Shown piece by piece: positions 46,199 to 62,680 of a DNA stretch of 64,000 bases (its first letter is position 1; each line of letters begins with the position of its first letter). The translations under genes were made by a program, and so were the position numbers. Origin of the DNA: Methanocellales archaeon (GTDB lineage Archaea; Halobacteriota; JAWCLZ01). Where the stretch lies: assembly GCA_038850275.1 (NCBI GenBank), contig JAWCLZ010000002.1:38993-102992 (forward strand), read 5' to 3'. Below the pieces are notes generated by a model. It did not search any database and was not told where the DNA came from. It saw only the letters and a program-made list of their open reading frames with translations.

Positions 46199-46855
46199 TT
46201 AAGCGCCAAATCTTCGGTTTCTACGTTGGAAATCTCTAATTGCTCTTAGAAAATCTATTTTTCTAAAGTCCCTCCAGCTGATATCTGTGAAGTAAAGCTC
46301 TGAGTAAACTGCTTGCCAAATTAAAAAATCAATCAAGCGCTTGCTATCTGCCCTTATTATTAAATCTGGCTCTATCTTGAAGGTTAAATGGGCCTCGATT
46401 AATTTCTCATCTATATCTTCAACTTCTATCTCCCCCGCTTTGACCTTCTTCATTATCTCTCTAATAGCATTTGTTAATTCATATTTACCTCCATATCCAA
46501 TTACTATTGTGAGCTGAGGCTGACCAGTTTTAATCTCTTGCTGCTTACCCTTGGTAAATATCGCTATGCCTATTTTAGCCATTGAGAATACTTTAGATGC
46601 AGTACTCAAAAGACTTTCCTCAACTTTTTTATTAAGATCCCCTACTTCAACAATGCTAATGTAAACAGTAATATTTTGAATTCCAATTTCACTGCACCAT
46701 TCAACAAATGCTTTAAGGCGCTTCCAAGCATTTTCCTCCATCAAGTTATCCTCAGATATAACTAAAATAATATGCTTGGGGACTCTGCCTTTTTTAACCT
46801 GCTCTAGGATTCTCCTCTCATATATCGCGGTAGCTATTTCTTTCACTATCCTCAA
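46199..46855 (-). CDS. cis-Prenyltransferase (UppS) family protein with degenerate catalytic motifs; candidate non-catalytic Nus1/NgBR-like subunit of a heteromeric cis-prenyltransferase
   Basis: 218 aa. The C-terminal half aligns with E. coli UppS (TIVIGYGGK; DLIIRADSKRLIDFLIWQAVYSELYFTDISWRDF; terminal RFG as in the R-x-G motif). The N-terminal DGNGRWA and FSSENW motifs are replaced (ISEDNLMEENAW; ISIVEV). Confidence 0.6.
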   Translation of the reverse strand: MRIVKEIATAIYERRILEQVKKGRVPKHIILVISEDNLMEENAWKRLKAFVEWCSEIGIQNITVYISIVEVGDLNKKVEESLLSTASKVFSMAKIGIAIFTKGKQQEIKTGQPQLTIVIGYGGKYELTNAIREIMKKVKAGEIEVEDIDEKLIEAHLTFKIEPDLIIRADSKRLIDFLIWQAVYSELYFTDISWRDFRKIDFLRAIRDFQRRNRRFGA

Positions 46856-46890: not shown

Positions 46891-48204
46891 ATGATTAGCG
46901 TGCGCGAGGAAGTTAAAAAGCAACTTTCTTATATATCACTTGGCTTTTCAGCACTCGCGATTCCCTTTCTTGAACCTTGGCAGATTATATTCGCAATTGC
47001 TATCATTACCATCTTAATCATATACATTCCACCTAGAACTAGGTTTTTCACAGCAATAGCTCGAGAGATAGATTTAAAAGCGGGTTTTTTAATCAATGCA
47101 ACGCGTTATAGCCTCTCATTTCTCATCCTAGCGATTCTTGTTTTGATAAACTTCCCCTTGTATTTACTTAGTGCTACAATTGCAATCGTTGCATTTGGAG
47201 ATGGATTAGCTACCGTAGCTGGCTTGGTAGGAGATTTAAAGCAGGAGAAAACTCTTAGAGGTAGCCTTACCTTTTTAATCTTAGGAAGCATAGCTGCATA
47301 TCTATCTTGCTCTTGGTATATACATTGGAGAGCTACTCAAGTATCTCTTGAATCCATATTCTTCTTAGCTGTAGTAGGAAGCGCAGTTGGAGCTTTGATA
47401 GAAGCTGTTTCCACTCAAACTAACCAAGGTTTAACAGTTCCAATTGGTAGCGCTATGGCAATGTGGTTTTTTTCAACCTTGAATTACTCAGTCTCCCCTA
47501 TTTATTTGCTACTTGCGCTATCATTAACGCTTTCAATTGGCATTGCATCTTATAAATCAAATATAGCTGATTTAAGCGGCGTGTTAAGCGGCACGCTTTT
47601 GGGCATGCTGATAATCATATTCACCGATCTACGTTGGTTTCTAGTTCTCCTAGCTTTTTTAATCCTTGGGTCTGGGTTCACCAAGTATAAATATGCCTAC
47701 AAGCTCTCCATAGGCGTGGCTCAGAGCAAGGGAGGTGCTAGGGGGGCGAGTAATGTCTTTGGCAATGGATTATCTGCCTTGTTTTTTGCAATTGCATATG
47801 GTGTTTATAAACAGGAGTTATTCCTATATGCCTTTTTAGGGGCAATATCAACTGCCACTGGTGATACACTAGCGAGTGAAATTGGAGGAACAAGTAAAAA
47901 ACTCCCTGTTTTAATTACTAATTTAAAGCCAGTGCCCCATGGTACAAGTGGGGGGATAACCCTACTTGGCGAGCTTGCTTGCGCACTTGGAGCTGCTTCG
48001 ATTGGGATGTTAGCTATAGCCTTGGCAATGGGTAGTGATTTAGAGCTATTGATATTCACTTTAATAAGTGGAATAGCCGGTGCTAATATAGATAGCTTGC
48101 TTGGAGCCACTCTTGAGAAAAAATATCTCTCGAACTCGATGACAAATCTAGCTGCCACTTTCTTTGGAGGATTAACCTCAGCTACCTTCTTCCTCCTCCT
48201 TTGA
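46891..48204 (+). CDS. Polytopic membrane protein (>=10 TM); C-terminal half DUF92/COG1836-like
   Basis: 437 aa; very hydrophobic; SKGGARGASNVFGNG region resembles DUF92; starts 35 nt from the cis-PT-like gene in divergent orientation. Confidence 0.4.
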   Translation: MISVREEVKKQLSYISLGFSALAIPFLEPWQIIFAIAIITILIIYIPPRTRFFTAIAREIDLKAGFLINATRYSLSFLILAILVLINFPLYLLSATIAIVAFGDGLATVAGLVGDLKQEKTLRGSLTFLILGSIAAYLSCSWYIHWRATQVSLESIFFLAVVGSAVGALIEAVSTQTNQGLTVPIGSAMAMWFFSTLNYSVSPIYLLLALSLTLSIGIASYKSNIADLSGVLSGTLLGMLIIIFTDLRWFLVLLAFLILGSGFTKYKYAYKLSIGVAQSKGGARGASNVFGNGLSALFFAIAYGVYKQELFLYAFLGAISTATGDTLASEIGGTSKKLPVLITNLKPVPHGTSGGITLLGELACALGAASIGMLAIALAMGSDLELLIFTLISGIAGANIDSLLGATLEKKYLSNSMTNLAATFFGGLTSATFFLLL

Positions 48205-49765
48205 GGATATAAACTAGAGCTAAAATTGCAATTACTGCAATTGCAACCTCGAATCCAGGTGCTACTCTACGAGTGGGTGTTGGTTGGGGAGGCGTGGGAG
48301 TTTGAGTTGGCAAGCTAGTTGGAGTTGGGGTTACCTCATCGAGATTTGTGATCGCAATTGTACTTGATTTTGCTATAGCGCGATAGTTTTTAATATCCAT
48401 ATAGGTTGAGGTTGCTTGAGGTAGAGTAAAAGAACGATTAGTTATGATCTCGATCTCATATTTCAATGAAGCACTTTCACCTGCCTTTAAAACCAAGGTG
48501 TTTGAAACTAAACTACCATTAATTAACTTAGTGCTTTCCAAGGGTATTTCATCTGAGATGTTAACAGCACAGGTTCTATCCCCTGAGTTCATAGCGGTAA
48601 TCGTTATGTTAATTCTACTCCCATTTTTAACAACTGTATTATCAGCTGTCTTCGTCAGCTCAATATATGGCCCGTGGACGATTAATTTGGGCTCCTCAGA
48701 TTCGATTGAGTAATTAACTCCATTGTAAGTAAAATTGGCAGTTGCCTTTGGAAGAGTATAAGTACCTGGTTTTAATGGTATCATCACATAAAATGGAATT
48801 AATCTCTCTTTCTCAACCCCTGGTTCAAGTACATCGATCTTCATATTAGTCTGACCGCTTTTGAGTTTGAATTCACTTAAAAGGGAATCGTTTATTACCA
48901 CGTCGTAGACTGGGAAGCTTCCATGGTTGCGTATAACCACAGTTACCCCTGAGGTTTCATCCATATATATACCTGTTTCAGTTGGAGTTGGAGTTAAATA
49001 TCCCACGCTACCGGAAACCAATTTTATTATTTCAATCATGGATTCTATCTCTATTGCCTTTGAACCACTCCAAGTATAGGATATATTCTTTGCATCATAG
49101 CCAGTGGCAGTTACATTTATGTAGAGCGTGGTTTTATTAAGCAGTGATGGAGCATTTAATGTTAAGAGTATATCTGGTACTTGCTCACCTCTTTTTATCT
49201 CACTATAGCTCTTAGTTGTCTCCCCCATTATCACTTGCATACCACTAGTATCGATGTTCAATTTAACATCCCCAGCTCTCGCTCCTTTATATGAACCTGG
49301 AGAATCGCTCCCAGTGTTTTTGACCTTCACTGTTACTTGAATATATCTATTTGCTTTATAGCTATTTGCATCAGTGGTTACCTCTATGGAGAGCTCAGGT
49401 AATCCTCTTAAGGTAACATATAGATCGACATAGGCTTTATTAGGGGGCTCGATATATACATTGGAAACATCTATCCAGATTTCATCTTCTCCATTGTAAT
49501 TCCAATGATTGCTTGGATAAACATTCATAATTCTCTGGTCGAGGTAAACCCCATCTTTATAGAGCTTTAGCTTAACACTTTTAATATCACCACTTACAGT
49601 GAAATCCGCGGCTTCAATTGTATAATTTCTAAAATTAGCTTTATCCCCCCAGTAAAGCTTTGCAGATTGCTGAGATTCCATCTCAATTGGAGCTGAGTAG
49701 CTTTTGCAGATATATGGAAGGGTAAATGCAAATAAAGCAAGGAATAACGCTATTCTCCAGTTCAT
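48182..49765 (-). CDS. Secreted surface glycoprotein with PGF-CTERM archaeosortase sorting signal
   Basis: 527 aa; N-terminal signal peptide; >=12 N-x-S/T sequons; TPTPT...PTPPQPTPT linker; C-terminal VAPGFEVAIAVIAILALVYIL + GGGRR (PGF motif, TM helix, basic tail). Confidence 0.7.
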   Translation of the reverse strand: MNWRIALFLALFAFTLPYICKSYSAPIEMESQQSAKLYWGDKANFRNYTIEAADFTVSGDIKSVKLKLYKDGVYLDQRIMNVYPSNHWNYNGEDEIWIDVSNVYIEPPNKAYVDLYVTLRGLPELSIEVTTDANSYKANRYIQVTVKVKNTGSDSPGSYKGARAGDVKLNIDTSGMQVIMGETTKSYSEIKRGEQVPDILLTLNAPSLLNKTTLYINVTATGYDAKNISYTWSGSKAIEIESMIEIIKLVSGSVGYLTPTPTETGIYMDETSGVTVVIRNHGSFPVYDVVINDSLLSEFKLKSGQTNMKIDVLEPGVEKERLIPFYVMIPLKPGTYTLPKATANFTYNGVNYSIESEEPKLIVHGPYIELTKTADNTVVKNGSRINITITAMNSGDRTCAVNISDEIPLESTKLINGSLVSNTLVLKAGESASLKYEIEIITNRSFTLPQATSTYMDIKNYRAIAKSSTIAITNLDEVTPTPTSLPTQTPTPPQPTPTRRVAPGFEVAIAVIAILALVYILKGGGRR

Positions 49766-49952: not shown

Positions 49953-50210
49953 TTGGGTAGAAAAGAAGTGATTCAAGAAATGCTTAAATTACTAGAGAAA
50001 TATCCAGATAAAGCACCTCATCTACCATGGGGCTTGAAAAACTGCCCAATGTGTAGAAGCGACTGCTGCAAATGGATAAGCAAATGCAGAGCTCGAGATC
50101 GCTATCTAGAGCCTCCTTATTGCAAAGTGGTATTCTATGAAGATGGCGAGTGGAATATTGAAAAATTGAGGCAGTACTTGCGTGGGTTAATCAATGCAGA
50201 ACAAACATAA
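49953..50210 (+). CDS. Hypothetical Cys-rich small protein
   Basis: 85 aa; CPMCRSDCCKWISKC. Confidence 0.3.
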   Translation: MGRKEVIQEMLKLLEKYPDKAPHLPWGLKNCPMCRSDCCKWISKCRARDRYLEPPYCKVVFYEDGEWNIEKLRQYLRGLINAEQT

Positions 50211-50244: not shown

Positions 50245-50319
50245 GGGGCAGTGGGGTAGCCTGGTCTATCCTCGAGCCTTTGGGAGGCTTGGACCGCAGT
50301 TCAAATCTGCGCTGCCCCA
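50245..50319 (+). tRNA. tRNA-Pro (anticodon UGG), no encoded CCA
   Basis: Manual fold: acceptor GGGGCAG/CTGCCCC, D-loop AGCCTGGTCTA, anticodon stem GAGCC/GGCTT with loop TTTGGGA (U33, UGG, G37), T-arm CGCAG-TTCAAAT-CTGCG, discriminator A. Confidence 0.8.
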
Positions 50320-50457
50320 TTTTTGATAATTCAATTTTAATTTTAATTTCAAAATTAAATTTTAATTTTTTAAAATGATGATATTATGATGAGTTTATTA
50401 TCAATTTTGATATTGTGATAACAAAATTTATTTTATAAAAATTAGATTTTATTTATA

Positions 50458-51597
50458 ATGATTGCAGATGCAAAAGCTCAGTTGAGCATGGACTTCCTAG
50501 GTGGATTTGTAATACTCTTCTTCAGTTTAGTAACAGTTTTAATATTTCTACCAACTTTATTCAGCACTCTTCAAAACCCAAGCATAGATCTCCACCCAGT
50601 GGCATATAGAACAAGTGTATTACTCGCAGAAGACCCAGGTTGGTGGAGCAATATCACAGTTGGCGAGCAAGGCTACAACTGGGAAGATCACTTGAACTAT
50701 ACTAGTAGAATTGGCCTTGCAAGCGTTAAATATGGAAAGGGAGATGCATGTATATTGGATAGAAATAAAACTCTAGCGCTTCTCACTCTATATAATAAAT
50801 CGGATTCCACAAGCTATGGAAAAATTCAAGATCTCTTGGGCTTGAAAAGCTCAACGCGAAAATACGACTACAATATAACATTCAAAATCCTGCCATCGGG
50901 AGCGATATGGAAAATTAAGCGGAATGAAAGCGGAGTATATAAAGAATATAATATGACATTTGGCAGAGAAATACCAAACTCTGGCAATGTGGAGAAAGTG
51001 GTGCGCATATTAAGAATTTATAAAGGATTTTACCCTGAATACATGCCATACATAGTCCCAGGTATAAACCCAGAGGAGAGGTGGTATCCAAACTGGCCAG
51101 ATGGATATTATCCCTTTGATGATATAAATGACGATGACAAAGGACAGTTTGACCACCCGCTCTTACTGAGCTATCCACTGGGGTATTTCAAGATATATAA
51201 TTTCGGCAGAGAGCCAAGTGCTACAGCTGTAGACGATCTCGACCTATATGTAACAACTGATCTCACTCAAACTGAAAATCGTTTATTGCACGCGAATCCC
51301 AACCTCGTGGTTTCTTGGAACAACAACACCGGCTGGAGCGGGCCATATTGGAATGGCACTGATTGGAGCATAGACCCAGGTACTGGTTTGAAGTCACGCA
51401 ATTTCGAAGAAGAAATCAATAGCAAACTTGAAGACCTAAATGCTAGCGATGGACAGCTATTTTTGCTTTCAATTAAATATCACAATGCACAAGGAGATGT
51501 CTCTGCACCCAATGCAGTGACTTGGCTTGAAGATCCTTGGCTGCCAACGGGAGAAGACATTCGTGGATTATTCAAACTGGAGGTATGCATATGGTAA
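50458..51597 (+). CDS. Class-III-signal (type IV pilin-like) secreted protein, gene A of the pilin/adhesin operon
   Basis: 379 aa; N-terminus MIADAKAQLSMDFLGGFVILFFSLVTVLIF fits the archaeal prepilin Q-x-S-x-[ED]-F-L + hydrophobic helix pattern; many N-glycosylation sequons; W/Y/D-rich ectodomain. Confidence 0.5.
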   Translation: MIADAKAQLSMDFLGGFVILFFSLVTVLIFLPTLFSTLQNPSIDLHPVAYRTSVLLAEDPGWWSNITVGEQGYNWEDHLNYTSRIGLASVKYGKGDACILDRNKTLALLTLYNKSDSTSYGKIQDLLGLKSSTRKYDYNITFKILPSGAIWKIKRNESGVYKEYNMTFGREIPNSGNVEKVVRILRIYKGFYPEYMPYIVPGINPEERWYPNWPDGYYPFDDINDDDKGQFDHPLLLSYPLGYFKIYNFGREPSATAVDDLDLYVTTDLTQTENRLLHANPNLVVSWNNNTGWSGPYWNGTDWSIDPGTGLKSRNFEEEINSKLEDLNASDGQLFLLSIKYHNAQGDVSAPNAVTWLEDPWLPTGEDIRGLFKLEVCIW

Positions 51598-52187
51598 AAA
51601 GCGAAGCACAGGTTTTCACCCTCGAGGGCTTGGGCGCGGCTGTGATAATAATGCTTGCATTATACTTCATGCTTCAATCCCCAGTTATCTTCACCCCTCC
51701 AACTGCGCAGCATTTAAATGTTCAACTTTCCCAACTCGGTAGAGATGCACTTCTAGCGCTTGATATAGAAGTGCCTAGCAATAGTACTCTTGCTAATTAT
51801 ACTTTGAAGAGCTATTTAAAAGCAATTAATAAAAGCGACCTTAAGATTCCAACTCAAATGAGAAAAGACCTATGCTCTCTTCTCCCGAGGAATGTGATGT
51901 TTAACGTGGTTTTAAGCTATGTTAATTTAAGCGGGGTAAACATAAGCGAGGGGAATTATACCATGCTAAATATCACCACTCTTATCTTAAATTCTGATAA
52001 TACTACTGAATTCATAACCAATCTCACGCCTCCTCAGGATTCCACAACTGCTAGCCATTTAGTAGTGCTCTACGATAGCGAGCTTAGCGAGGACTCGCCA
52101 TTCAAAGTAAATGCAACTGAAATGGGAACTGAGCCTGAGAGAATACCCCACGTTATAGAGGTGAGACTTGAGCTATGGTATGTTTAA
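51585..52187 (+). CDS. Class-III-signal pilin-like protein, gene B
   Basis: Start MHMVKSEAQVFTLEGLGAAVIIMLALYFML; ~11 sequons in ~200 aa; overlaps gene A by 13 nt. Confidence 0.5.
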   Translation: MHMVKSEAQVFTLEGLGAAVIIMLALYFMLQSPVIFTPPTAQHLNVQLSQLGRDALLALDIEVPSNSTLANYTLKSYLKAINKSDLKIPTQMRKDLCSLLPRNVMFNVVLSYVNLSGVNISEGNYTMLNITTLILNSDNTTEFITNLTPPQDSTTASHLVVLYDSELSEDSPFKVNATEMGTEPERIPHVIEVRLELWYV

Positions 52188-52600
52188 GAAATGAAGAAGG
52201 GCAGATCATAATATTATTTGGATTTTTAATAGCAGCTAGCTTAATCGTATTAGCTGTGCTTTTAAATACTGTGCTATTCTCAGGCCAGCAGGCAGTCGTT
52301 GGGGAGTTTACCTTCCCTAAATATGAGATACAGGATATAAGGCTTCAAACTCTAGAGCAAGCTAAAATTGCGGCAAATCGCTCGGAGTTTAAAAATGAAA
52401 CTATATTTAATGAGATAATTGAGCTATATAGTAAGCAAATCCTAGCATTATATAGCGAGAGGGGTGCTTATGCTTTAGTCACAATTAAGCCTGTGAAGAG
52501 TGGAGAGAATATAACTTGGGCTCAAGTCAAGGTAATCTACAACGATATGTATACTGATTACAAAAGTGTGGATGTGATCTATGATTTAAAGGGGGAATAA
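52175..52600 (+). CDS. Class-III-signal pilin-like protein, gene C
   Basis: 141 aa; RNEEGQIIILFGFLIAASLIVLAVLL (KGQ-type prepilin cleavage context + hydrophobic helix); overlaps gene B by 13 nt. Confidence 0.5.
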   Translation: MVCLRNEEGQIIILFGFLIAASLIVLAVLLNTVLFSGQQAVVGEFTFPKYEIQDIRLQTLEQAKIAANRSEFKNETIFNEIIELYSKQILALYSERGAYALVTIKPVKSGENITWAQVKVIYNDMYTDYKSVDVIYDLKGE

Positions 52601-52607
52601 TTGGAAT

Positions 52608-55600
52608 ATGAATAAAATGAAGAAGAATATGAATAGTAATACTAAGTGGAATAAATTTGTTAATAATACTCAAGCGGTAACTCCAACCTATGAATATATA
52701 ATACTCATTGGAATTTTAATCGTCTATATCACTCTCTTCCTCACTATTTACGCTGATGAATTTGGAATAGCACCTTTGAGAATCGCAATGCAAACGCAGT
52801 TCGAGGATATTGGCAATGATATTAGCTCAAAAGTCGTGGATATGTATATAATTGCACCTGAATCAGGCTATTTAAAAACCAAATTCTACATGCCTCAAGC
52901 AGTTGGTAAATATGAATATAAAGTTGAATTCAAAGAAATAGGACTTGACCAGCAAATTTTGGTTTCAGCGCTGAGGTTTGAGAAAGAAGTAATGATCACT
53001 TTAAATAAAATAGGCTCAAGCTTAGGACTAACTGGCTCTACTTATAGTTCCACTCCTGAGCACTGGCTTATCTATAGCATGAGCTCGCAATATGATCTAA
53101 CTCCAATTGCAGTTGCATATCCAAGGGAAGTCTCTTATAACCTCACTTCTGGGTGGAGTGATATAGTTGTTTTCGATGGAAGTGATTCAAAAGGTATAGG
53201 CGAGCTTCAATATAAATGGGACTTCAATGGCGATGGAATTGTAGACGCGACTAATGCAACTGAATATTATCAATACTCAGCTCCAGGTGTTTACAATGCA
53301 ACTTTAACAATCTATGATCCAATTTTAGATAGAGAAGCTTCAACAACTGTTCAAGTAAATGTTACCACTAGTTATATCGAGCCATCCATAGATGCCTATA
53401 AATATGTATCTCCAAGGAGCTTTGGAGTGGGTAAACCAAGTTATACAACTATAGTGCTCTATGGCAAGGGAATACCTCAAAATGAATCCCATATTGATGT
53501 AATGCAAGTGATAGATGTCTCAGGAAGTATGGATCCAGATTGGCTAAAGATAGCTGGCGGTGATCCAGAAACAGGCTACACTCCATTCTCAAATAAGAGT
53601 ATAAAGGGAACCGCTGGAAGCAAGATCTGGACTGAGAGCTTTAGTTTAACAAGCGCTGCTAATGAAACAATTGAAAAACTTCACGTTGAACTCTGGAATG
53701 TAAGCGGGAGTAATAATGTTGATCTCTACGTCAAGCCCCCAGGTGGAATTGCTGAGAGAGCGCAGACTATAACTCCTTGGTATGAGCGCTATGAAAAAGC
53801 AAATCCACCCTTAGGTAGCTATACCATCTACGTACTTGGAGACTTCCCAGTTGGGAGCCAGTCGTTTAAAGTGAATGTAAACAAGACCTCAAAGATTAGT
53901 ATAAGTGGAGCTGTGGATACCTACACTTGGAGCAATACCACTTATAATTTGAACGTGGCTAAGTGGATGGAGACATATATAACTTGGCCCACTAGCTCAG
54001 TCGATCTAAATCTATATTTAACCGACCCGAGCTCAGCAACTTATGCTCCAACTTCAGCAAATCTCTCTTCGCCCTCTCGCAATTGGGAGCGAATTTATCT
54101 CACTAATATAAAAGCTGGGGACTGGACAGTTGCAGTTTACAACAATGGGTCTTACCCCACTTATAATGTTACAATTCAAGCTTGGTGCATCGAAGAAAAC
54201 AAGGATCCCAAAGTGGATATAACCATGGATGGCTCTTCAACTGGTAAAAAAACCCCACATACCTTCACAGGTTTAACAGGCACTCATACCTTCACTGTGC
54301 CCAGCAGCGATTCAAAAGGACATCAATTTTGGAAGTGGAATGAAACTGGCTCTACAAGTAGAACGATAAGTGTGAGTTCAAGTGGAACTTATACCGCTGT
54401 ATATCGCCAGCCTCCACCTACCCCTACACCAACACCAACTTTCACAATTTCAAATCCAGGAGAGCAGACTGTGTATCGAGGCAGCTCGAAATCAATAAGT
54501 ATAACGGTAACAAGTTATTATGGCTATAACAAAGAGGTTAGTTTAAACGCTAGCGGAATGCCAAGTGGCACTACAATTACCTTCACTCCCGATAAAAAAA
54601 CGCCCACATTTAGCTCTACAATGACTATAAATGTGAGCGCGAGTACGCCAACTGGAAATTATCCAATAACAATCATTGGCACTGGGAGCGATGGATTAGT
54701 TAAAACTCAAACATTCACATTATATATACCTGATTTCTCAATAAGTGCTTCTCCCTCTTCGGGGAGTGTTAAAACCACGGGCGGGAGCACCAATTATACC
54801 ATTACCTTAACCTCGCTATATAAATTCGCAGGCAGCATCTCGCTCTCAATCTCAGGATTGCCAGCAGGTGCTAGTGCCACATTCAGCCCTAATCCAGTTA
54901 GCCTATCAGCTGGGCAAACTAAGACCTCAACCCTCACTGTTTCAGTGCCCCCTGGAACTCCAGTTGGAGATTATACCTTAACCATAACTGGCATAAGTGG
55001 AAGCCTCAGCCATTCAACAAGCGTAACTCTTAAAGTCATAATACCCCCACCTGGCTTGCTCTACTGGCTAGCTAGACTATATGAAATCTCACTCCCAAGT
55101 CCATGGATCAGCGCTAGAGCTGCTCCAGGTGTAGAGAGCTTCACTGGATATATACGCCTTGGCGAAACTCCAGTAACAAACTTTAGCGGCAATATAACTG
55201 CAAGCGAGCCGCCTAGGTGGGATAATACTGAGAGTCCAATCTTGATTAATGAATCCATTGAGAACTTCAAGATAAGTTTGAATTACTACGATGAATATGG
55301 GAATGAAAGTTTGCACTTCTGGGTAAGTAAAAATGGCGCTCCTCCAGTGCTAGTAGCTGGATTAATGGGTGAGTACTATGACAACATGGATTTAACCAAT
55401 TTGAAATTAACTAGACTAGACCCAGTGGTAGACTTCAACTGGGGCTCAGGCTCACCACATTCTTCAATTGAAGCTGATACCTTCTCAGTTAGATGGACTG
55501 GCTATGTTAAAGTGGATAGGTCTGAGACTTATACATTTTATGTAGTTACAGACGATGGAAGTAGGGTATGGGTTGATGATACGCTTATCATCGATTCTTG

Positions 55601-56792
55601 GATTAATCAATCAACGACTGAGCGCAGTGGAAGTATTTATCTCGCTGAGGGCTGGCATAAGATAAAATATGAATATTATGAGAACACTGGAAGTGCAACT
55701 GCTAGATTGCTATATTCCTCTCCAAGCACGCCTAAACAAGTTATACCGCAGGATCACCTGAGCCCAGTTAATATGAAGGGCAATGTATGCATAAATTATA
55801 CTGAGACAAATGTAATTGCACCTGCTACTTACACTATTTATATAACTGGAACTTTCCTCAGCGGTACAAAGGATTTTGAACTGCAAACCTATATGGCTAA
55901 ACTAGATGCAGCTAGGATAAGTGGTAAAACCTTTGAGGATATGTTGAATAGCTCTTCAGATAAATCTGGATTAGTTTCATTTGGTGGCAATGCAACTATT
56001 ATTAACCAATCAGATGTGAGGTTGATTCAAAGTCTAACTTATAGCCATAGCCTTGTTAAAGCTGGCTTCGATTTATTAGAGGCGCATAATGGCACGCCAG
56101 TGGGTGAAGCCATCTATGTTGCAGTTCAAGAGCTAAATAATTCCTCGGAGTTCTTCACTGAGAATGATCGCACTCGAGTGCCTGTGATAATCTTGCTCTC
56201 AGATGGACTGCCAACCCTCCCAGCAACCCTTGAGGAGATCTCTGAAAATAATTATACTCGAGCTATTCAATATGCCCTTGAGCAGGCTAATATTGCGAAG
56301 AGCATGGGTATTTTGATCTATGCAATTGGATTTGGAGTTGATGCTGACATGAATTTCCTCGCTAACATCTCAAGTGGCGAGGGCTTTTACTTCTTCGCTG
56401 CTACTAAAGAAGAGCTTCAAGCGATTTATCTGCAAATAGTTAAGGAACTTAGGGAATATGCTGGTAGAAATGTAGTGATCACTGATGTAGTGCCAGCTGG
56501 TATAAATGTAGTAAGCGCACCAGGAGCGAGTGAGATAATTAATAATGATGATGGAACTACAACTATTATCTGGAGAGTAGGTGGAGTTAAAATTTATAGA
56601 CATGGTCAAACACCACTGGTGAGGAGATTGGTGATATCAACTATGAGCACTGGTTCCACTAATGCCAATGTATATGGTCTCTCCAATGTTACTTATACCA
56701 ATGTTATCACAGGTGATCTAACCACTTTTGTATTTCCTGAGACGAATATCTACGTTAAACCAGTTGGCAGTGGACAGATGAGTATGGAGTGA
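52608..56792 (+). CDS. Giant (1394 aa) surface adhesin with pilin-like N-terminal TM segment, MIDAS motif, PPC-like beta-sandwich repeats, TP-linker, PA14 domain and vWA domain
   Basis: N-terminus ...TQAVTPTYEYIILIGILIVYITLFL is pilin-like. DVSGSMD is a MIDAS D-x-S-x-S motif at aa ~302. VDLYV / VDLNLYLT are PPC-type motifs. PPPTPTPTPT is a linker. The PA14 domain (aa ~917-1040) contains GEYYDNMDL...FSVRWTGYVK...YTFYVVTDDGSRVWVDD...GWHKIKYEYYE. The vWA C-terminal half (aa ~1100-1290) contains GNATI...NGTPVGEAI...ILLSDGLPT...ILIYAIGFG. Confidence 0.7.
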   Translation: MNKMKKNMNSNTKWNKFVNNTQAVTPTYEYIILIGILIVYITLFLTIYADEFGIAPLRIAMQTQFEDIGNDISSKVVDMYIIAPESGYLKTKFYMPQAVGKYEYKVEFKEIGLDQQILVSALRFEKEVMITLNKIGSSLGLTGSTYSSTPEHWLIYSMSSQYDLTPIAVAYPREVSYNLTSGWSDIVVFDGSDSKGIGELQYKWDFNGDGIVDATNATEYYQYSAPGVYNATLTIYDPILDREASTTVQVNVTTSYIEPSIDAYKYVSPRSFGVGKPSYTTIVLYGKGIPQNESHIDVMQVIDVSGSMDPDWLKIAGGDPETGYTPFSNKSIKGTAGSKIWTESFSLTSAANETIEKLHVELWNVSGSNNVDLYVKPPGGIAERAQTITPWYERYEKANPPLGSYTIYVLGDFPVGSQSFKVNVNKTSKISISGAVDTYTWSNTTYNLNVAKWMETYITWPTSSVDLNLYLTDPSSATYAPTSANLSSPSRNWERIYLTNIKAGDWTVAVYNNGSYPTYNVTIQAWCIEENKDPKVDITMDGSSTGKKTPHTFTGLTGTHTFTVPSSDSKGHQFWKWNETGSTSRTISVSSSGTYTAVYRQPPPTPTPTPTFTISNPGEQTVYRGSSKSISITVTSYYGYNKEVSLNASGMPSGTTITFTPDKKTPTFSSTMTINVSASTPTGNYPITIIGTGSDGLVKTQTFTLYIPDFSISASPSSGSVKTTGGSTNYTITLTSLYKFAGSISLSISGLPAGASATFSPNPVSLSAGQTKTSTLTVSVPPGTPVGDYTLTITGISGSLSHSTSVTLKVIIPPPGLLYWLARLYEISLPSPWISARAAPGVESFTGYIRLGETPVTNFSGNITASEPPRWDNTESPILINESIENFKISLNYYDEYGNESLHFWVSKNGAPPVLVAGLMGEYYDNMDLTNLKLTRLDPVVDFNWGSGSPHSSIEADTFSVRWTGYVKVDRSETYTFYVVTDDGSRVWVDDTLIIDSWINQSTTERSGSIYLAEGWHKIKYEYYENTGSATARLLYSSPSTPKQVIPQDHLSPVNMKGNVCINYTETNVIAPATYTIYITGTFLSGTKDFELQTYMAKLDAARISGKTFEDMLNSSSDKSGLVSFGGNATIINQSDVRLIQSLTYSHSLVKAGFDLLEAHNGTPVGEAIYVAVQELNNSSEFFTENDRTRVPVIILLSDGLPTLPATLEEISENNYTRAIQYALEQANIAKSMGILIYAIGFGVDADMNFLANISSGEGFYFFAATKEELQAIYLQIVKELREYAGRNVVITDVVPAGINVVSAPGASEIINNDDGTTTIIWRVGGVKIYRHGQTPLVRRLVISTMSTGSTNANVYGLSNVTYTNVITGDLTTFVFPETNIYVKPVGSGQMSME

Positions 56793-56796
56793 TGAG

Positions 56797-57588
56797 ATGC
56801 TAAACTCAAGAGAAGCAGTATCAGAAGTAGTTGGATATATGTTGATCTTCACCATAGTGGTGCTCTCCATAGGATTGATGTATGTCTATGGCTATCCCAT
56901 TTTAGAGGACCTTCAAAATAGAATTCGCTTTCAAAACGCTGAGCAGGGATTTGCAACTCTACAGGCTGATTTAGATAGAGTGGTATTTGACCAAGCACCT
57001 ATTAAGACCACGAGGATAAACACAGGTGGGGGATCCATTCAAGCTGCTTCCTCAGGGGATAGAATTAACATAGTGGTTAACATTAGCGGGGAGAAGAAAT
57101 ATGAAGTTACAAGGGAACTTGGAATCGTGGAATATCGCCACTTGGGGAAGAGAATTGCCTATATAGATGGCGGGGTATTCATAAAAGAGGGCGAGCGCTC
57201 TTATCTTCGAATTCCACCTAAGATCTATGTTTACAATGACACTGAGACCTCTAATCTAACAGTTATAATCTCAATTTTCTCGATATACTGCAAATATCCC
57301 ACGATGGGTGGGGGCGAGAGGGTATCAGTGTTGAGTAAATTTAATAGGTCGAGCACGAGTGCTTATATCAATCAAAGCTTTAACTCTAGCTTGAGCAATG
57401 TAACCATAGTTATAAATAGTAGTTTATACGCTGATGCTTGGGAAATGCACTTTAGCAATCTCAAAGAGCGGGCATACGTTGGGATAGAGGTCACGAGGTT
57501 GAATTCCACTCACGTGAGAGCAGTAATTCCATTCAATAGAGTGGTCATCGCTGAGAATAAAGCTGATGTAGAGGTATTCTCTAGTTAA
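56797..57588 (+). CDS. Type IV pilin-like protein (DUF1628-like N-terminal domain), gene E
   Basis: 263 aa; MLNSREAVSEVVGYMLIFTIVVLSIGLMYV closely resembles the haloarchaeal/euryarchaeal pilin consensus R-A-V-S-E-V-I-G-V + hydrophobic helix; starts 5 nt after the adhesin stop. Confidence 0.55.
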   Translation: MLNSREAVSEVVGYMLIFTIVVLSIGLMYVYGYPILEDLQNRIRFQNAEQGFATLQADLDRVVFDQAPIKTTRINTGGGSIQAASSGDRINIVVNISGEKKYEVTRELGIVEYRHLGKRIAYIDGGVFIKEGERSYLRIPPKIYVYNDTETSNLTVIISIFSIYCKYPTMGGGERVSVLSKFNRSSTSAYINQSFNSSLSNVTIVINSSLYADAWEMHFSNLKERAYVGIEVTRLNSTHVRAVIPFNRVVIAENKADVEVFSS

Positions 57589-57595
57589 TTTATTT

Positions 57596-57631
57596 GATGA
57601 AGCTCTCTAGTTAATGAAGCTCTCTAGATTC
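57596..57631. repeat. 18-bp direct duplication of a start-codon region (atgaagctctctagtt / atgaagctctctagat)
   Basis: Read directly; the first copy encodes MKLSS* and the second is the start of the radical SAM gene. Confidence 0.8.
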
Positions 57632-58492
57632 AAGTCTCCTCAGCAAGCACTTTGCACTTGCTTGCCAAAGTATAACTTGAATCCCTATCTAGGGCGCTGT
57701 GAGCACGCTTGCATATATTGCTATAGCGTGAAATTCCCAAGTTTCAGGGGCAAGACTAGGCCTAGATTGAATCTTATTGATGATATTGAATCAATGGCTA
57801 GGAATACCAAGCCCAAGCTACCTATTATGATCAGCGATGCCACTGATCCCTATCAACCGCTTGAGAAGCAATATGAGATCACGAGATATTGCTTGAAAGT
57901 GTTGATAAAATATGGCTATCCCCTTTTGATTTTAACTAAATCTGATCTTATAACTCGCGATATTGATATTCTCAAGAGCGCTCGATGCATAGTTGGAATC
58001 ACGATTACAACTCTAGATGAAGAGCAAGCTAAGATGATTGAGCCAAATGCTCCATCACCTATCAAGCGCCTTGCAGCACTTGAAAAACTTACCGAGGCTG
58101 GCCTGCGTACCTTTGCAAGGATAGATCCAGTTATTCCTACTTTTAATGATCGCGAGGAAATGCTAGAGAAATTAATCAATGAAATTGCTATTGCTGGGGC
58201 TAAGCAAATAACTGTGAGTACCTTGAAACCAGTTCGAGGTTTTTTCACCTCACTTGCTAGAATTGATTTGGAGCTTTCAAAGCGCTTGCGCTCAATTTAT
58301 GATCAAGGGGAGTGCATTCTTGGGTATAGATATTTACCAATTGAGATTCGCAGGAGTATTATTTTAAGGCTATATAGAATTGCCTCCAAGTTTAACCTAG
58401 CATTTGCATCTTGCAGAGAGGGTTTATCGCATTTGAATACTACTCTCTGCGATGGCTCAAGCGAGCTGCGGTTTATCGAAAAATATATTTAG
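57614..58492 (+). CDS. Radical SAM protein, SplB/DNA-repair-photolyase-like family (COG1533)
   Basis: 292 aa; CEHACIYCYS (C-x3-C-x-YC) cluster motif. Confidence 0.6.
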   Translation: MKLSRFKSPQQALCTCLPKYNLNPYLGRCEHACIYCYSVKFPSFRGKTRPRLNLIDDIESMARNTKPKLPIMISDATDPYQPLEKQYEITRYCLKVLIKYGYPLLILTKSDLITRDIDILKSARCIVGITITTLDEEQAKMIEPNAPSPIKRLAALEKLTEAGLRTFARIDPVIPTFNDREEMLEKLINEIAIAGAKQITVSTLKPVRGFFTSLARIDLELSKRLRSIYDQGECILGYRYLPIEIRRSIILRLYRIASKFNLAFASCREGLSHLNTTLCDGSSELRFIEKYI

Positions 58493-58526
58493 TTTGTTCG
58501 CTTATATTCGAACAAATGTGATTAAT

Positions 58527-58988
58527 ATGGCAAGTCCAATGGAAGTCTTTCAACTCTTACCTAAAACAAACTGCAAGCTATGTGGAGAGCCAAGTTGCAT
58601 GGCCTTTGCATTTAAACTCATCTCTAAAGAACATAAATTAGAGGACTGTCCCCCGCTTTACCAAGAGAAAAAATATGCTTCAAATAGAGAAAAACTTGAG
58701 GCAATCTTCAAAAAAGTGGAGAAAGCAGTTGAAACAGGCTTGATAATTCACTCTGAAAAATGCTTTGGATGTGGAAACTGCGTTGTAGCTTGCCCTGTGA
58801 ATGTAGCTGAGGACCCAACTGGCTCAGCTCTTGGTCTAGGGCCTAAAAACGATAAGGTAATATTGAAGGTAGTGAAAGGAGTTATTACCGCTAACAATGT
58901 TCAAAAATGCCGTAGATTTGGGCCAGATAGAATACTTTGCAATGGCTGCATCGTAACTTGTCCAAGCGAGGCAATTGAATTTGTTTAG
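58527..58988 (+). CDS. Ferredoxin-type Fe-S protein: N-terminal CdhE/AcsC-like putative Fe-S domain (PF04060-like) + 2x[4Fe-4S] domain (FwdG-like)
   Basis: Start MASPMEV; LPKTNCKLCGEPSCMAFAFKL resembles the N-terminal Fe-S domain of corrinoid Fe-S protein; CFGCGNCVVACPVN and CNGCIVTCP clusters. Confidence 0.55.
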   Translation: MASPMEVFQLLPKTNCKLCGEPSCMAFAFKLISKEHKLEDCPPLYQEKKYASNREKLEAIFKKVEKAVETGLIIHSEKCFGCGNCVVACPVNVAEDPTGSALGLGPKNDKVILKVVKGVITANNVQKCRRFGPDRILCNGCIVTCPSEAIEFV

Positions 58989-58996
58989 GTGAGAAA

Positions 58997-60181
58997 GTGG
59001 CTCTCTGTCCAGTTTGCTCTTGCCTATGTGATGATATTGAAGTTGTGAAAAGTGCTAACAATATAGAAAGCTTGAGCAACGCGTGTAGAAGAGGCACAGC
59101 TTACTTCTTAAACTTCAACGTTGATCGCCTAGAGCCAAGTATAGATGGTAAAAAAGTGGAGGTTGAGGAGAGCATAAAAAGTGCAATTACGCTGCTTAAA
59201 AATTCTAGAAAGGTATTGATCTATGGCCTAGCAAATGTAGATGATGAAGCGCAGAAAATAGCTTTTGAAATAGCAGATAAAATCCCCTCAATTCTAGGAG
59301 ATTCCTCTGTTTATAGCTTTCTTGTCAAAAAGATTTTAGCACGCGAGATAAAAACTAATACCCTTGACTATGTGAGAGACCACGCGGATACAATTATCTA
59401 TTGGGGCTCAGACCCAAGTAATTCCCACCCTCGCCATCTCTCGCGATATACCTATTATCCCAGAGGTAAATATAGACAGCGCGGTTGGGAGGAGGATAGA
59501 TATTTAATTGGCATTGATGTTAGGGATTCCTCAACTTCTAAGATGTTCAAAAAATTTTTAAAGATCAAGCCAAGTGAAGATGTGGATTTGATAAAAGCAT
59601 TGATAATCTCCCTCAGCGGTAAAATTCCAAATACCACTTTAGATAAAAAAACAATTTTAGAGCTCACTAGCCAGCTTAAAAAAGCAAAACATGGCGTGAT
59701 CTGCGCTGGATTTGGACTAGCGCAAGCGATATATAATAATCTCGAGCTCTTTAAGGAACTCCTTGCTAAGCTCAATGAAATTGGAGAATACATTGTAATT
59801 CCAATGCTCGAAGGAGCCAATGCCTTTGGATTTGAAAAGCTGATGTATGAGAAAAAAATTGACTCCACACTTGAGCAACTCCATAGGGCAATTTTAAATA
59901 GCGAAGTAGACCTAGCGCTTATCATAAAGTCAGACCCAGTTTCAGAACTGCCCAATCCTCTTCAAAAAGCTCTCTTAAAGATCCCCTTGATTGCAATTGA
60001 CTCCCGTAGGACTCTCACTTCAAGCAAGGCAAAGATTACAATACCAAGTGCAGCTGCAAGCATAGAGTTCAGCTGCTCCCTATATAGAATGGATGGAGTT
60101 ATGGTAAGAGGCGAAAAACTATTAGACTCTAGAGCAATGAGTGACGCAGAGGTCTTGAGAAGATTAAGAGAAGGGATTTAA
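58997..60181 (+). CDS. fwdB: Formylmethanofuran dehydrogenase subunit B-like molybdopterin oxidoreductase (FwdB/FmdB paralogue), possibly non-canonical
   Basis: 394 aa; N-terminal MALCPVCSCLCDDIEVV (FwdB C-P-x-C-x-x-L-C-D-D-I Fe-S motif); IIYWGSDPSNSHPRHLSR aligns with FwdB VVYWGCNPMHAHPRHMSR; the position of the W/Mo-ligating Cys (SVC) reads SVY here. Confidence 0.65.
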   Translation: MALCPVCSCLCDDIEVVKSANNIESLSNACRRGTAYFLNFNVDRLEPSIDGKKVEVEESIKSAITLLKNSRKVLIYGLANVDDEAQKIAFEIADKIPSILGDSSVYSFLVKKILAREIKTNTLDYVRDHADTIIYWGSDPSNSHPRHLSRYTYYPRGKYRQRGWEEDRYLIGIDVRDSSTSKMFKKFLKIKPSEDVDLIKALIISLSGKIPNTTLDKKTILELTSQLKKAKHGVICAGFGLAQAIYNNLELFKELLAKLNEIGEYIVIPMLEGANAFGFEKLMYEKKIDSTLEQLHRAILNSEVDLALIIKSDPVSELPNPLQKALLKIPLIAIDSRRTLTSSKAKITIPSAAASIEFSCSLYRMDGVMVRGEKLLDSRAMSDAEVLRRLREGI

Positions 60182-60182
60182 C

Positions 60183-60575
60183 ATGCCAATTAGCGAGTTC
60201 TTAATACACCCGGAGCATGAATTAACTCTTATTTTATATAGAGATATCTTCGTGGATGAAGCCATGCTTAAGAATAGATTCTCAAGCGAGCTTAAGCAAG
60301 CAGCGGCGTTTATTAGGCTTGATGAAGTGGATATTAAAAAAATTGGATTGAGGGAAGGCGGCAATGCAAGGATAAGTGGTTCTTCAAAAACCATTGTTGC
60401 GAGGGTGATAAAGGATCAAAAGCCCCATCAAGGATATGCATATATGCCCCTGAGTCCATGGTCAAACTCACTCTTGCACTTCGATGGCAAAAATTTAGCA
60501 GCCACGCGCGTGGCAAAGGTAAAAATATCCTACACCACGCTGCCTGTGACTGAGCTCAAAGAACTGCTAAGTTAA
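60183..60575 (+). CDS. fwdD: Formylmethanofuran dehydrogenase subunit D-like (molybdopterin dinucleotide-binding domain)
   Basis: 130 aa; immediately after the fwdB-like gene (1-nt gap); size and position typical of FwdD. Confidence 0.55.
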   Translation: MPISEFLIHPEHELTLILYRDIFVDEAMLKNRFSSELKQAAAFIRLDEVDIKKIGLREGGNARISGSSKTIVARVIKDQKPHQGYAYMPLSPWSNSLLHFDGKNLAATRVAKVKISYTTLPVTELKELLS

Positions 60576-61765: not shown

Positions 61766-62680
61766 TTGGAGTCAGAGACCAAAAAATTGACTTACTCAGA
61801 CTATGTTGCTATCCTCGGAATGGGCTTTTTTCTTTTAATAGTGGAGTCCCTTGCATTATTTCTAGTGAGGCCTTTTCAAGAGAATAATATGCAGGTCTTT
61901 GAAGAACCAACGTCGATGTGGAATCCAGTTGCCTATATTTCAATAATCCTTTGCTTCACTATTTTCATATTAATAACCCTTCGATATGGGAAAAATTGGA
62001 TGATACAAGCTTTCATTGGATTCGCGGTGGTAACTACGCTTTTAATAATCTTCGATGTCTTCACCTCAAGATTACTTCCAAATACAATAGCTTTCCCTAT
62101 TGCTATTGCACTCACGGTTTCCTCAACTGTGCTTCTCTATAAATACCCAGAGTGGTATGTTGTAGATACCATTGGTGTAGTGATAGGTGCAGGTGCAGCA
62201 TCGCTATTTGGAATCTCCCTTGCAATAATCCCAACCATTGTTCTATTAATTACCCTCGCAGTTTACGATGCAATCTCAGTTTATAAAACCAAGCATATGA
62301 TTAAACTAGCTGAGGGGGTGCTTGCCCTTAAAATTCCAGTGTTACTCGTGATTCCTAAGAAGCGCAGTTTTTCCTATAGAAGACAAGCATCTCTAGGTAA
62401 AACTGGAGAGCGCGAGGCATATTTCATGGGCCTTGGGGATGCAGTTATACCTGCTATTTTAGTGGTATCAGCAAATGTTTTCATAGAAGAAGCCCCAGGG
62501 ATAATTGCAGCGATTAACTATCCAGCGCTTGGTGCAATGATTGGCTCGCTCATTGGTTTTTCAATGCTCATGACCTTCGTGGTCAAAGGCAAGCCTCAAG
62601 CTGGTTTGCCGTTGCTTAACACTGGTGCAATTTCAGGCTTCCTATTGGGGTGCTTTGCAAGTGGAATTATTCCCTTTTAA
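61766..62680 (+). CDS. Presenilin/signal-peptide-peptidase family intramembrane aspartyl protease (PSH-like)
   Basis: 304 aa; ~9 TM; catalytic YD (LAVYDAISVY), GLGD (FMGLGDAVIPAIL) and PAL (NYPALGAM) motifs in the canonical order. Confidence 0.7.
   Translation: MESETKKLTYSDYVAILGMGFFLLIVESLALFLVRPFQENNMQVFEEPTSMWNPVAYISIILCFTIFILITLRYGKNWMIQAFIGFAVVTTLLIIFDVFTSRLLPNTIAFPIAIALTVSSTVLLYKYPEWYVVDTIGVVIGAGAASLFGISLAIIPTIVLLITLAVYDAISVYKTKHMIKLAEGVLALKIPVLLVIPKKRSFSYRRQASLGKTGEREAYFMGLGDAVIPAILVVSANVFIEEAPGIIAAINYPALGAMIGSLIGFSMLMTFVVKGKPQAGLPLLNTGAISGFLLGCFASGIIPF

Follow-up and report, generated by a model that had tools for sequence, protein, structure and literature searches.

Five consecutive genes in a 64,000-nt stretch of a Methanocellales archaeon metagenome-assembled genome (MAG; contig JAWCLZ010000002.1, assembly GCA_038850275.1), referred to here as the window, are a member of the clade-2 pilin cassette described by Makarova, Koonin and Albers in 2016 (PMC4858521). 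The protein families encoded by these genes, which we call A to E, travel together in a fixed order and carry class-III-type N-termini, and the fourth protein, D, joins a pilin module to a series of adhesion modules. D is functionally closest to the modular minor pilin PilB of Streptococcus sanguinis, not to the adhesin PilY1. That A–E constitute the pilin set of a type IV filament is very probable. We further propose, with a probability of roughly 60%, that they are the pilin cassette of the euryarchaeal ‘clade 2/system 2’ filament and form a priming/tip complex that is served in trans by an assembly machine and displays D.

A sequence-only reading of the window had pointed to five tightly packed, same-strand genes 3′ of a tRNA-Pro gene, and its coordinates, sizes and junctions agree with ours. 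The genes lie on the forward strand and span 50458–57588 (Table 1). A and B overlap by 7 nt and B and C by 13 nt, gaps of 7 and 4 nt separate C from D and D from E, and this overlapping or nearly abutting arrangement suggests co-translation of A–E. The order and sizes of the five genes are the same as in the published clade-2 string arCOG06117–arCOG04652–arCOG07777/06552–arCOG03926–arCOG02911 of the Haloferax volcanii PilB4-type cassette (Fig. 4B model of Makarova et al.), and they match the supplementary rows for Archaeoglobus fulgidus, A. profundus, A. veneficus and A. sulfaticallidus. D belongs to arCOG03926, because it matches the 790-aa A. veneficus protein P0163 (E 9e-101), whose length agrees with that of the 2373-nt arCOG03926 gene (99386..101758) in the published table. 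The arCOG assignments of A, B, C and E follow from position and size rather than from direct comparison. The product of the arCOG03926 gene differs in size between Archaeoglobus species, with 959 aa in A. fulgidus, 790 aa in A. veneficus and only about 130 aa in A. profundus (PMC4858521). At 1394 aa, window D is larger than any of these, and its vWA domain accommodates one more beta-sandwich together with Ig-like repeats and a PA14 lectin domain.

Close-homologue lookups and one scan of GTDB species genomes with a 7-sequence alignment yielded 26 further loci (L002–L027). When the window proteins were compared by BLAST with the open reading frames (ORFs) of these loci, the A-B-C-D-E order was found in orthologous Methanocellales loci, Methanohalophilus, Methanoregulaceae, other Methanomicrobiales and Geoglobus, whose locus (L023) has matches to all five proteins. 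In Halovenus, the same five Pfam families stand in identical order. In Candidatus Mnemosynella (L024), B and E alone had BLAST matches; the ORFs at the remaining positions had none. One related Methanocellales MAG, JZ-2_201705_bins_258, carries two cassettes: one (L008) is orthologous to the window locus and has a D of 1586 aa, and the other (L010) is a paralogue of ~40% identity whose 887-aa D is without PA14.

These loci also bear on the claim, made from the window alone, that the genes are a type-IV-pilin-like set with one adhesion-domain member. The five families are conserved, and they are linked to filament machinery at the family level. In Halorubrum (L014, L025), DUF7261 and DUF7289 genes (DUF7288 in L025) lie directly downstream of genes for a T2SSE ATPase with PilB3_N/C domains and a T2SSF platform protein; the same association is seen in Halorubrum L017, and in a Thermoplasmatales MAG (L027) relatives adjoin T2SSE and two T2SSF genes. 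Because Halorubrum and Thermoplasmatales members adjoin T2SSE/T2SSF, the cassette can be tied to type IV filament machinery as a family. The large ATPases of L014 and L017, with their extra N- and C-terminal domains, fit the published description of H. volcanii PilB4, a correspondence of description only.

In the methanogen and Archaeoglobi loci examined, by contrast, the cassette is alone, flanked by unrelated housekeeping genes. The window is no exception. A Pfam scan of 53 of its 66 ORFs of at least 130 aa, including every ORF of at least 300 aa, detected neither a T2SSE ATPase nor a T2SSF platform protein, as the sequence-only reading had noted. The window reaches just 6.4 kb downstream of gene E; in the syntenic relative L002, the 10 kb on the downstream side lack both families as well. 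Nor does the window hold a gene for an A24 prepilin peptidase, its sole GxGD protease being of the presenilin/SPP type, or, in or near the cassette, one for a major pilin. Since the cassette stands alone here, the ATPase and platform protein must come from elsewhere in the genome, and the reliance on distant machinery suggested earlier is thus a feature shared with other methanogens and Archaeoglobi. The literature offers parallels. The clade-2 string stands alone beside ribosomal protein genes in A. fulgidus and adjoins TadC and ATPase genes in A. profundus, ATPase/TadC modules serve pilin sets encoded in trans, and euryarchaeal major pilins are as a rule encoded by stand-alone genes (PMC4858521). 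Cultured Methanocella genomes encode three clade-2 ATPases.

The N-termini of all five proteins share a common plan, in which a short polar segment ends in Ala or Gly, Gln or Val follows across the putative cleavage site, and a hydrophobic helix begins. All of the prepilin-like strings quoted in the sequence-only reading are present, and both the site and the hydrophobic stretch are conserved in each family across 10–20 homologues. The residue after the small residue is Gln in families A, B and C and Val in families D and E. Counted from the putative cleavage, there is a conserved acidic residue in A (an invariant Asp at +5), B (Glu at +6, which is E12 of the family alignment and invariant together with T10), D (Glu at +6) and E (Glu at +3). 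Family C, in which Q10 is invariant, is the only one of the five without a conserved acidic residue near the mature N-terminus. A simple pattern written by hand after the manner of FlaFind matched only part of the N-termini; in the table of Makarova et al., arCOG04652, 07777, 06552, 03926 and several arCOG02911 members are marked FlaFind-positive (PMC4858521).

Comparison of the families with hhalign gave a probability of 93% for D against E over the N-terminal 60 residues and low probabilities for the pairs B/E, C/B and A/B, leaving D and E as the only pair whose N-termini are demonstrably related. At the level of sequence, D and E share a homologous Pilin_N-type N-terminus, and A, B and C are a separate ‘Q at +1’ type whose members are only weakly similar to one another. 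This type may resemble the EppA-type substrates of Methanococcus. With marginal E-values, the N-terminus of the E family profile matches three archaeal pilins of solved structure (8fj5, 9myg and 8gi2); the profiles of A, B and C gave no meaningful match among PDB sequences.

Comparison of the N-termini with archaeal pilin models, which had been proposed as a check, gave a mixed outcome: the proteins match DUF families and E has a weak Pilin_N match in addition, but C itself has no Pfam match. Gene A encodes a protein with 10 N-x-S/T sequons and a match to DUF7287 (1.1e-6, residues 5–59). Its homologues occupy the first cassette position in nine loci, and the haloarchaeal counterpart matches the same family far better (2.3e-39). 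B, for which 51585 and 51537 are alternative starts, matches DUF7288 over its full length (2.5e-18). For C, DUF7261 is matched by 5 of 12 aligned homologues (best 1e-6) and by haloarchaeal counterparts (7e-13). E matches DUF7289 (9.2e-28) and belongs to a large family, with 1814 clusters at 50% identity in an exhaustive profile search (E-value ≤0.001). The AlphaFold model of E (predicted local distance difference test score, pLDDT, 91.7) is a ‘lollipop’ in which a helix (residues 4–64) is followed by a beta domain; a fold search with this model gave no significant match, the globular part having no pilin match, so that the model resembles a pilin fold in shape only. None of the five Pfam families has yet been given a label other than ‘unknown function’, and we found no paper that mentions DUF7287, DUF7288, DUF7289 or DUF7266 by name.

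All five proteins are also rich in N-x-S/T sequons, as had been remarked earlier. Their density is 2.1–5.1 per 100 aa (5.05 in B), compared with a median of 0.25 in 55 other window ORFs, or 8–20 times that of a typical window ORF, as expected for extracellular glycoproteins. The only other ORF with more than 2 sequons per 100 aa encodes the neighbouring PGF-CTERM surface protein. A–E could therefore be imagined as ordinary N-terminally anchored surface glycoproteins, for example S-layer-associated ones, with no relationship to type IV filaments. The uninformative Pfam labels, the PGF-CTERM glycoprotein and lipid-carrier genes just upstream and the failure of E’s globular fold to match a pilin would all suit such proteins. 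In Halobacteria and Thermoplasmatales, however, genes of these families lie beside T2SSE/T2SSF genes; the small-residue/Gln or Val site stands right before the hydrophobic helix, with acidic residues at +3 to +6; the N-termini are similar to those of solved archaeal pilins; and most of the corresponding arCOGs are FlaFind-positive in the published table (PMC4858521). We give the glycoprotein explanation very little credence.

The first 157 residues of D align end to end with stand-alone pilins of 147–157 aa encoded at the same cassette position elsewhere and, as judged from this alignment, D is a complete ~157-aa pilin module followed by a ~1230-aa extension. The match of the N-terminus to DUF7266 is weak (0.002–0.02). 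Proteins P0161–P0193 were considered as further sharers of the pilin head and discarded, as they align only with the Ig-like repeats or PA14. D has the composition by which Raynaud et al. (2021) recognize modular pilins, namely a pilin module joined to domains that are not specific to filaments, here PKD, vWA, Ig-like and PA14. In sequence terms it is the archaeal counterpart of these proteins, without the bacterial IPR012902 motif of the published definition.

The vWA domain of D is split. Taken alone, the protein matches Pfam VWA only over residues 1114–1274, which correspond to profile positions 34–172 in the C-terminal part of the domain (36.2 bits). The DxSxS motif of the metal-ion-dependent adhesion site (MIDAS), at residues 303–307, sits ~800 residues upstream of the remaining vWA. 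Splicing residues 289–314 onto residues 1095–1300 extends the match to profile positions 1–172 and raises it to 46.2 bits, from which we conclude that the vWA domain is interrupted just after the MIDAS loop by ~780 residues. D303, S305 and S307, the Thr of NGTP and the Asp of LSDG are conserved in eight orthologues, and the vWA of D has a complete predicted MIDAS. The insertion contains beta-sandwich modules, a PT-rich linker, Ig-like (NPCBM_assoc) repeats at ~610–813 (Pfam 2.3e-8; residues 742–794 in the full-length scan) and, in the last sandwich, the PA14 domain.

A model of the 786-aa D orthologue P0157, built from only eight sequences, is consistent with this layout. It places two confident beta-sandwiches (308–506) between a strand (284–290) and a helix (507–520), predicts with low confidence beta strands at 680–785 that correspond to the C-terminal domain of D, and in a Foldseek search gave as its best PDB matches the vWA domains of ITIH1, CMG2, SpaC and Mfa5. 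Of the domains that the sequence-only reading had assigned to D, the MIDAS, PA14 and vWA are there, as are beta-sandwiches in the orthologue model. The label ‘PPC-like’ for these sandwiches did not hold, as no PPC family matched full-length D at E ≤1 or residues 315–864 at E ≤0.1. The comparison of D with PilY1 also fails as a statement about domains: no PilY1/PilC beta-propeller is present among the 13 Pfam matches of D at E ≤1, and the first ~157 residues are a pilin module.

Seven D orthologues have ~430 N-terminal and ~330 C-terminal residues in common and differ in the central insert between these regions, which measures ~0 aa in the 786- and 853-aa forms, ~630 aa in window D and ~820 aa in the 1565- and 1586-aa forms. 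Among homologues generally the extension ranges from 0 to about 1400 aa. D thus varies tenfold in length between close relatives as the other four genes remain constant, a pattern that argues for D as a peripheral rather than a core subunit. This variation also bears on the idea that the filament is built from the cassette proteins themselves, in which case the D family would supply the major subunit and giant D proteins would coat the whole fibre with adhesion domains. The ‘predicted major pilin’ annotation of arCOG03926 and its relationship to PilA (PMC4858521) speak for that arrangement, as does the Pilin_N-type N-terminus common to D and E. Nevertheless, a 1394-aa subunit with a ~1230-aa extension is sterically implausible in helical packing, the far smaller S. 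sanguinis PilB already clashes everywhere but at the tip (PMC8179133), and a major subunit would hardly change tenfold in length between close relatives with four constant partners. We regard a D-built fibre as very unlikely, and the major-pilin label does not fit proteins of 790–1586 aa.

The PA14 domain is itself nested in the last beta-sandwich of the insertion, as comparison with short orthologues reveals. It is ~60% identical to PA14-A of Clostridium thermocellum RsgI3 (PDB 6qe7, E 2e-74) and retains the DcisD motif (TDDG), and its CBL2-equivalent loop reads ENTGS. The published CBL2 signatures are QHVRA for pectin and NNTGN for xylan (PMC6852018), and the loop of D more closely resembles the latter, which by analogy would suggest a xylan-type specificity. 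The clostridial biomass sensors RsgI3 and RsgI4 share this level of PA14 identity and the conserved DcisD calcium motif but differ in architecture, with tandem PA14 dyads on anti-sigma factors instead of a single PA14 nested in an adhesin. Horizontal transfer of the domain from cellulolytic Clostridia was considered and dropped: because PA14 domains of 55–60% identity are widespread in bacteria, for example in cyanobacteria, no donor can be named.

Adhesion-type modules also appear in other arrangements at related loci. In Methanohalophilus (L012, 10701–15899, minus strand), D is small (147 aa) and genes for 743- and 967-aa proteins lie convergently right after E. Both proteins are BLAST-similar to the vWA region of D, and the 967-aa protein has Pfam Big_1 and VWA domains. 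Because the small D of this locus has vWA-similar proteins next to its cassette, some lineages may have vWA functions fused to the pilin where others encode them separately. Two large proteins are encoded in the Thermoplasmatales locus (L027, 4458–14151, plus strand): one of 1282 aa that combines a HINT/intein-like domain with a DUF7289-like C-terminal part, and one of 1572 aa in which a DUF7266 head precedes beta-helix, PKD and DUF2341 domains; DUF2341 was linked to PilY adhesins by Makarova et al. (PMC4858521). Finally, two Halobacteria loci (L015, 11014–12444, minus strand; L014, 9279–10841, minus strand) have a second DUF7289 pilin fused to DUF7305. The L015 fusion also carries pAdhesive_15, an ‘ice-binding-like adhesive’ module, here on an E-type rather than a D-type carrier.

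Among characterized systems, S. sanguinis PilB offers the closest parallel to D. Like D, it is a modular minor pilin with a grafted vWA module (PilC of the same species has a lectin module), a complete MIDAS and inserted ‘arms’ by the MIDAS, and it is co-encoded with other minor pilins. In contrast to D, PilB is bacterial, much smaller and from another pilin N-terminal family (IPR012902), whereas D adds PKD, Ig-like and PA14 domains and has a vWA split by the ~780-aa insertion. The role of PilB has been demonstrated experimentally; D is known here from sequence. The bacterial FimU–PilVWX–PilE set with PilY1 (PilHIJK with PilC) resembles the cassette in organization, in that a conserved operon encodes four or five different low-copy pilins along with a large adhesin and one subunit is without the conserved acidic residue, and the two cassettes of the L008/L010 genome recall the alternative minor-pilin/PilY1 clusters of Myxococcus xanthus. 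There is, however, no sequence or domain relationship between these sets, D has no beta-propeller and is itself a pilin, so the likeness is a functional analogy only. The vWA tip adhesins SpaC and RrgA of sortase pili and Mfa5 of type V pili likewise have arms around the MIDAS and a pilus-tip location, and the P0157 model matches SpaC and Mfa5, but their assembly systems are unrelated and the adhesins are without a pilin module.

Together, these features suggest a model for A–E. A PibD/FlaK-type peptidase would cleave all five proteins at the conserved site, and they would then assemble via their N-terminal helices into one hetero-oligomeric priming/tip complex; that the genes are single-copy, overlapping and in fixed order suggests a single stoichiometric complex. 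This complex would sit on a PilB/PilC machine encoded elsewhere in the genome, with the shaft built from a separately encoded PilA-type major pilin. Tip complexes of type IV filament minor pilins are capped by a subunit lacking Glu5 (PMC10191384), and C, as the family without a conserved acidic residue near its mature N-terminus, would be the best candidate for such a capping subunit by analogy with GspK/PilK-type proteins. The pilin module of D would dock in the complex, with the ~1230-residue extension pointing outward. We place D at the tip because a vWA-bearing modular pilin, as predicted for S. sanguinis PilB, is sterically compatible only with that position (PMC8179133). Binding would then involve the metal-dependent MIDAS site of the vWA domain and the Ca2+-dependent PA14 lectin predicted from the sequence.

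Alternatively, A–E could build a short cell-bound pseudopilus or stalk, akin to a bindosome or the pseudopilus of type II secretion, that lifts the giant adhesin through the S-layer without any long pilus. Only pilBC3 of the five H. volcanii pil clusters yields visible pili and the PilB4-type system is without a known filament, there is no major-pilin gene in or near the cassette, the five single-copy subunits in fixed order resemble the GspH–K pseudopilus tip set, and, according to the proposal of a recent preprint, archaea use type IV filament machines to display binding proteins. Stand-alone major pilin genes are usual in euryarchaea, however, so that little can be read from their absence here. 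Moreover, D has only about 150 aa in most lineages, and adhesin display therefore cannot be the general role of the cassette. For these reasons we consider a stalk unlikely and favor a priming/tip complex on a pilus.

Several observations weigh against the priming/tip model or parts of it. A filament, cleavage or interaction has been shown for no member of the five families, and the haloarchaeal PilB4-type system has neither an assigned function nor a known filament. T2SSE, T2SSF and A24 peptidase genes of the host were not located in the window scanned, and no major pilin is encoded in or near the cassette. The published annotation of arCOG03926 makes D a major pilin related to PilA (PMC4858521). 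E is the only one of the five proteins modeled with confidence; the P0157 model has an overall pLDDT of 58.7, and its N-terminal pilin part, with a pLDDT below 50, is not interpretable. Both the capping role of C and the xylan-type specificity of PA14 come from analogy alone.

The sequence-only reading had presented a minor-pilin set with a vWA tip adhesin as a novelty in archaea, which overstated the case: Makarova et al. (2016) had defined this cassette and modeled minor-pilin sets with PilY-like tip adhesins (PMC4858521). Their main text depicts archaeal pili with at least five minor pilins and places the PilY-like tip adhesins in clade 1, and their supplement notes a FlaFind-positive PA14 protein beside pilins in Methanocella (PMC4858521). 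The family to which we assign E by position, arCOG02911, is the ‘signature minor pilin’ of euryarchaeal systems. Minor-pilin sets with large adhesins, this gene set, giant genes at the D position and a PA14 protein beside Methanocella pilins are thus already published and, because both concept and gene set are in the literature, the gain from our analysis is incremental. To this our analysis adds that the head of D is equivalent end to end to the small pilins and that its vWA domain is split and its PA14 domain nested, together with the pattern of acidic residues across the five families and the reading of the lectin loop.

These additions bear on a widespread euryarchaeal system with no characterized pilus, whose E family is as large as noted above, and on what archaeal minor pilins do and how archaeal pili adhere. 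The fourth member of this cassette can be as small as a bare pilin of 150 aa or as large as a multi-domain adhesin of 1400–1600 aa, a range that argues against the ‘major pilin’ label and for a tip/priming complex like those of bacteria. If confirmed, the bacterial strategy of mounting adhesion modules on a pilin carrier would also operate in archaea, and the domains of D would point to a carbohydrate or metal-dependent ligand for methanogen attachment. More speculatively, Methanocellales and some Archaeoglobi might tip a generic filament with exchangeable five-pilin cassettes, the giant fourth subunit of which carries a MIDAS vWA and a nested xylan-type PA14. We consider this extension doubtful; were it true, a methanogen could use its pilus to bind the polysaccharide of plant cell walls or syntrophic partners with a glycan coat, and two paralogous cassettes in one genome would represent alternative binding specificities served by one shared machine.

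Table 1. The cassette and its neighbours in window coordinates. Residue numbers refer to D; a slash within a sequence motif marks the putative cleavage site.
Feature	Position	Strand	Description and evidence
cis-prenyltransferase gene	46199-46855	-	just upstream of the cassette
DUF92 gene	46891-48204	+	integral membrane protein; just upstream of the cassette
Surface protein gene	48182-49765	-	527 aa; DUF11, CARDB and TRAP_beta; weak sub-threshold PGF-CTERM match; divergent from the cassette
Cys-rich ORF	49953-50210	+	85 aa (CPMCRSDCCKW...); just 5′ of tRNA-Pro; no family match
tRNA-Pro(UGG), tgg	50245..50319	+	ARAGORN; neighbour, not a functional part of the module
Gene A	50458..51597	+	379 aa; DUF7287-family, pilin-like; arCOG06117-equivalent by position; putative cleavage KA/QLSMDFL
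Gene B	51591..52187	+	198 aa; DUF7288-family, pilin-like; arCOG04652-equivalent by position; putative cleavage EA/QVFTLEG
Gene C	52175..52600	+	141 aa; DUF7261-family, pilin-like; arCOG07777/06552-equivalent by position; putative cleavage EG/QIIILFGF
Gene D	52608..56792	+	1394 aa; modular pilin/adhesin; DUF7266/arCOG03926 family
D residues 1-160	52608..53087	+	class-III-type N-terminus (QA/VTPTYEY, Glu +6) and complete pilin module
D residues 186-250	53163..53357	+	PKD; Pfam PKD_4 2.3e-7 (residues 186-247)
D residues 295-313	53490..53546	+	first vWA strand and MIDAS DxSxS (D303, S305, S307); motif search, alignment
D residues 314-1094	53547..55889	+	~780-aa insertion within vWA; orthologue alignment, Pfam, P0157 model
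D residues 917-1057	55356..55778	+	PA14 lectin-type domain; Pfam PA14 3.7e-26 (residues 917-1049)
D residues 1095-1290	55890..56477	+	rest of vWA (alpha1 onward) with MIDAS Thr (NGTP) and Asp (LSDG); Pfam VWA
D residues 1291-1394	56478..56789	+	beta-rich C-terminal domain; conserved in all orthologues (alignments)
Gene E	56797..57588	+	263 aa; DUF7289-family pilin; arCOG02911-equivalent by position; putative cleavage EA/VSEVVGY
Radical SAM gene	57614-58492	+	PA0069/Rv2578c-like, with a DUF1848-like region; starts 25 nt after E
Three genes after the radical SAM gene	58452-60575	+	Fe-S protein; 394-aa protein without Pfam match; molybdopterin-binding-domain protein
Intramembrane protease gene	61766-62680	+	presenilin/SPP-type GxGD protease (PF06550, 1.6e-89); not A24 family

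The tRNA-Pro gene, the only tRNA gene that ARAGORN found in the window, had been singled out as a mark of the locus. The adjacency is real and common to the closest orthologous locus (L009), but none of nine other loci scanned for tRNAs has it, and it is a matter of local synteny only. We also considered the tRNA as an integration site or island marker and ruled this out, as GC content is flat across the cassette region, the housekeeping flanks have conserved synteny and the tRNA is absent from those nine loci.

Several neighbouring genes recur in L002. The surface protein encoded divergently from the cassette, which has 2.28 sequons per 100 aa, is conserved at the same position there; S-layer-like proteins often accompany some pilus loci (Makarova et al. 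2016, PMC4858521). L002 also has the cis-prenyltransferase/DUF92 pair. This pair may be linked to the lipid carrier of N-glycosylation, which would fit the sequon-rich neighbours, and coincidence is equally possible. The gene for the presenilin/SPP-type protease, 4 kb downstream of the cassette, is syntenic in L002 as well. A radical SAM gene stands 3′ of E, as in the window, in L006 and L007 but not in L002 or L009, and the window gene is probably not part of the module. The three genes after it look like a formylmethanofuran-dehydrogenase-type group, fitting a methanogen. Finally, at the position equivalent to that of the 85-aa Cys-rich ORF, L002 has an ORF of 90 aa.

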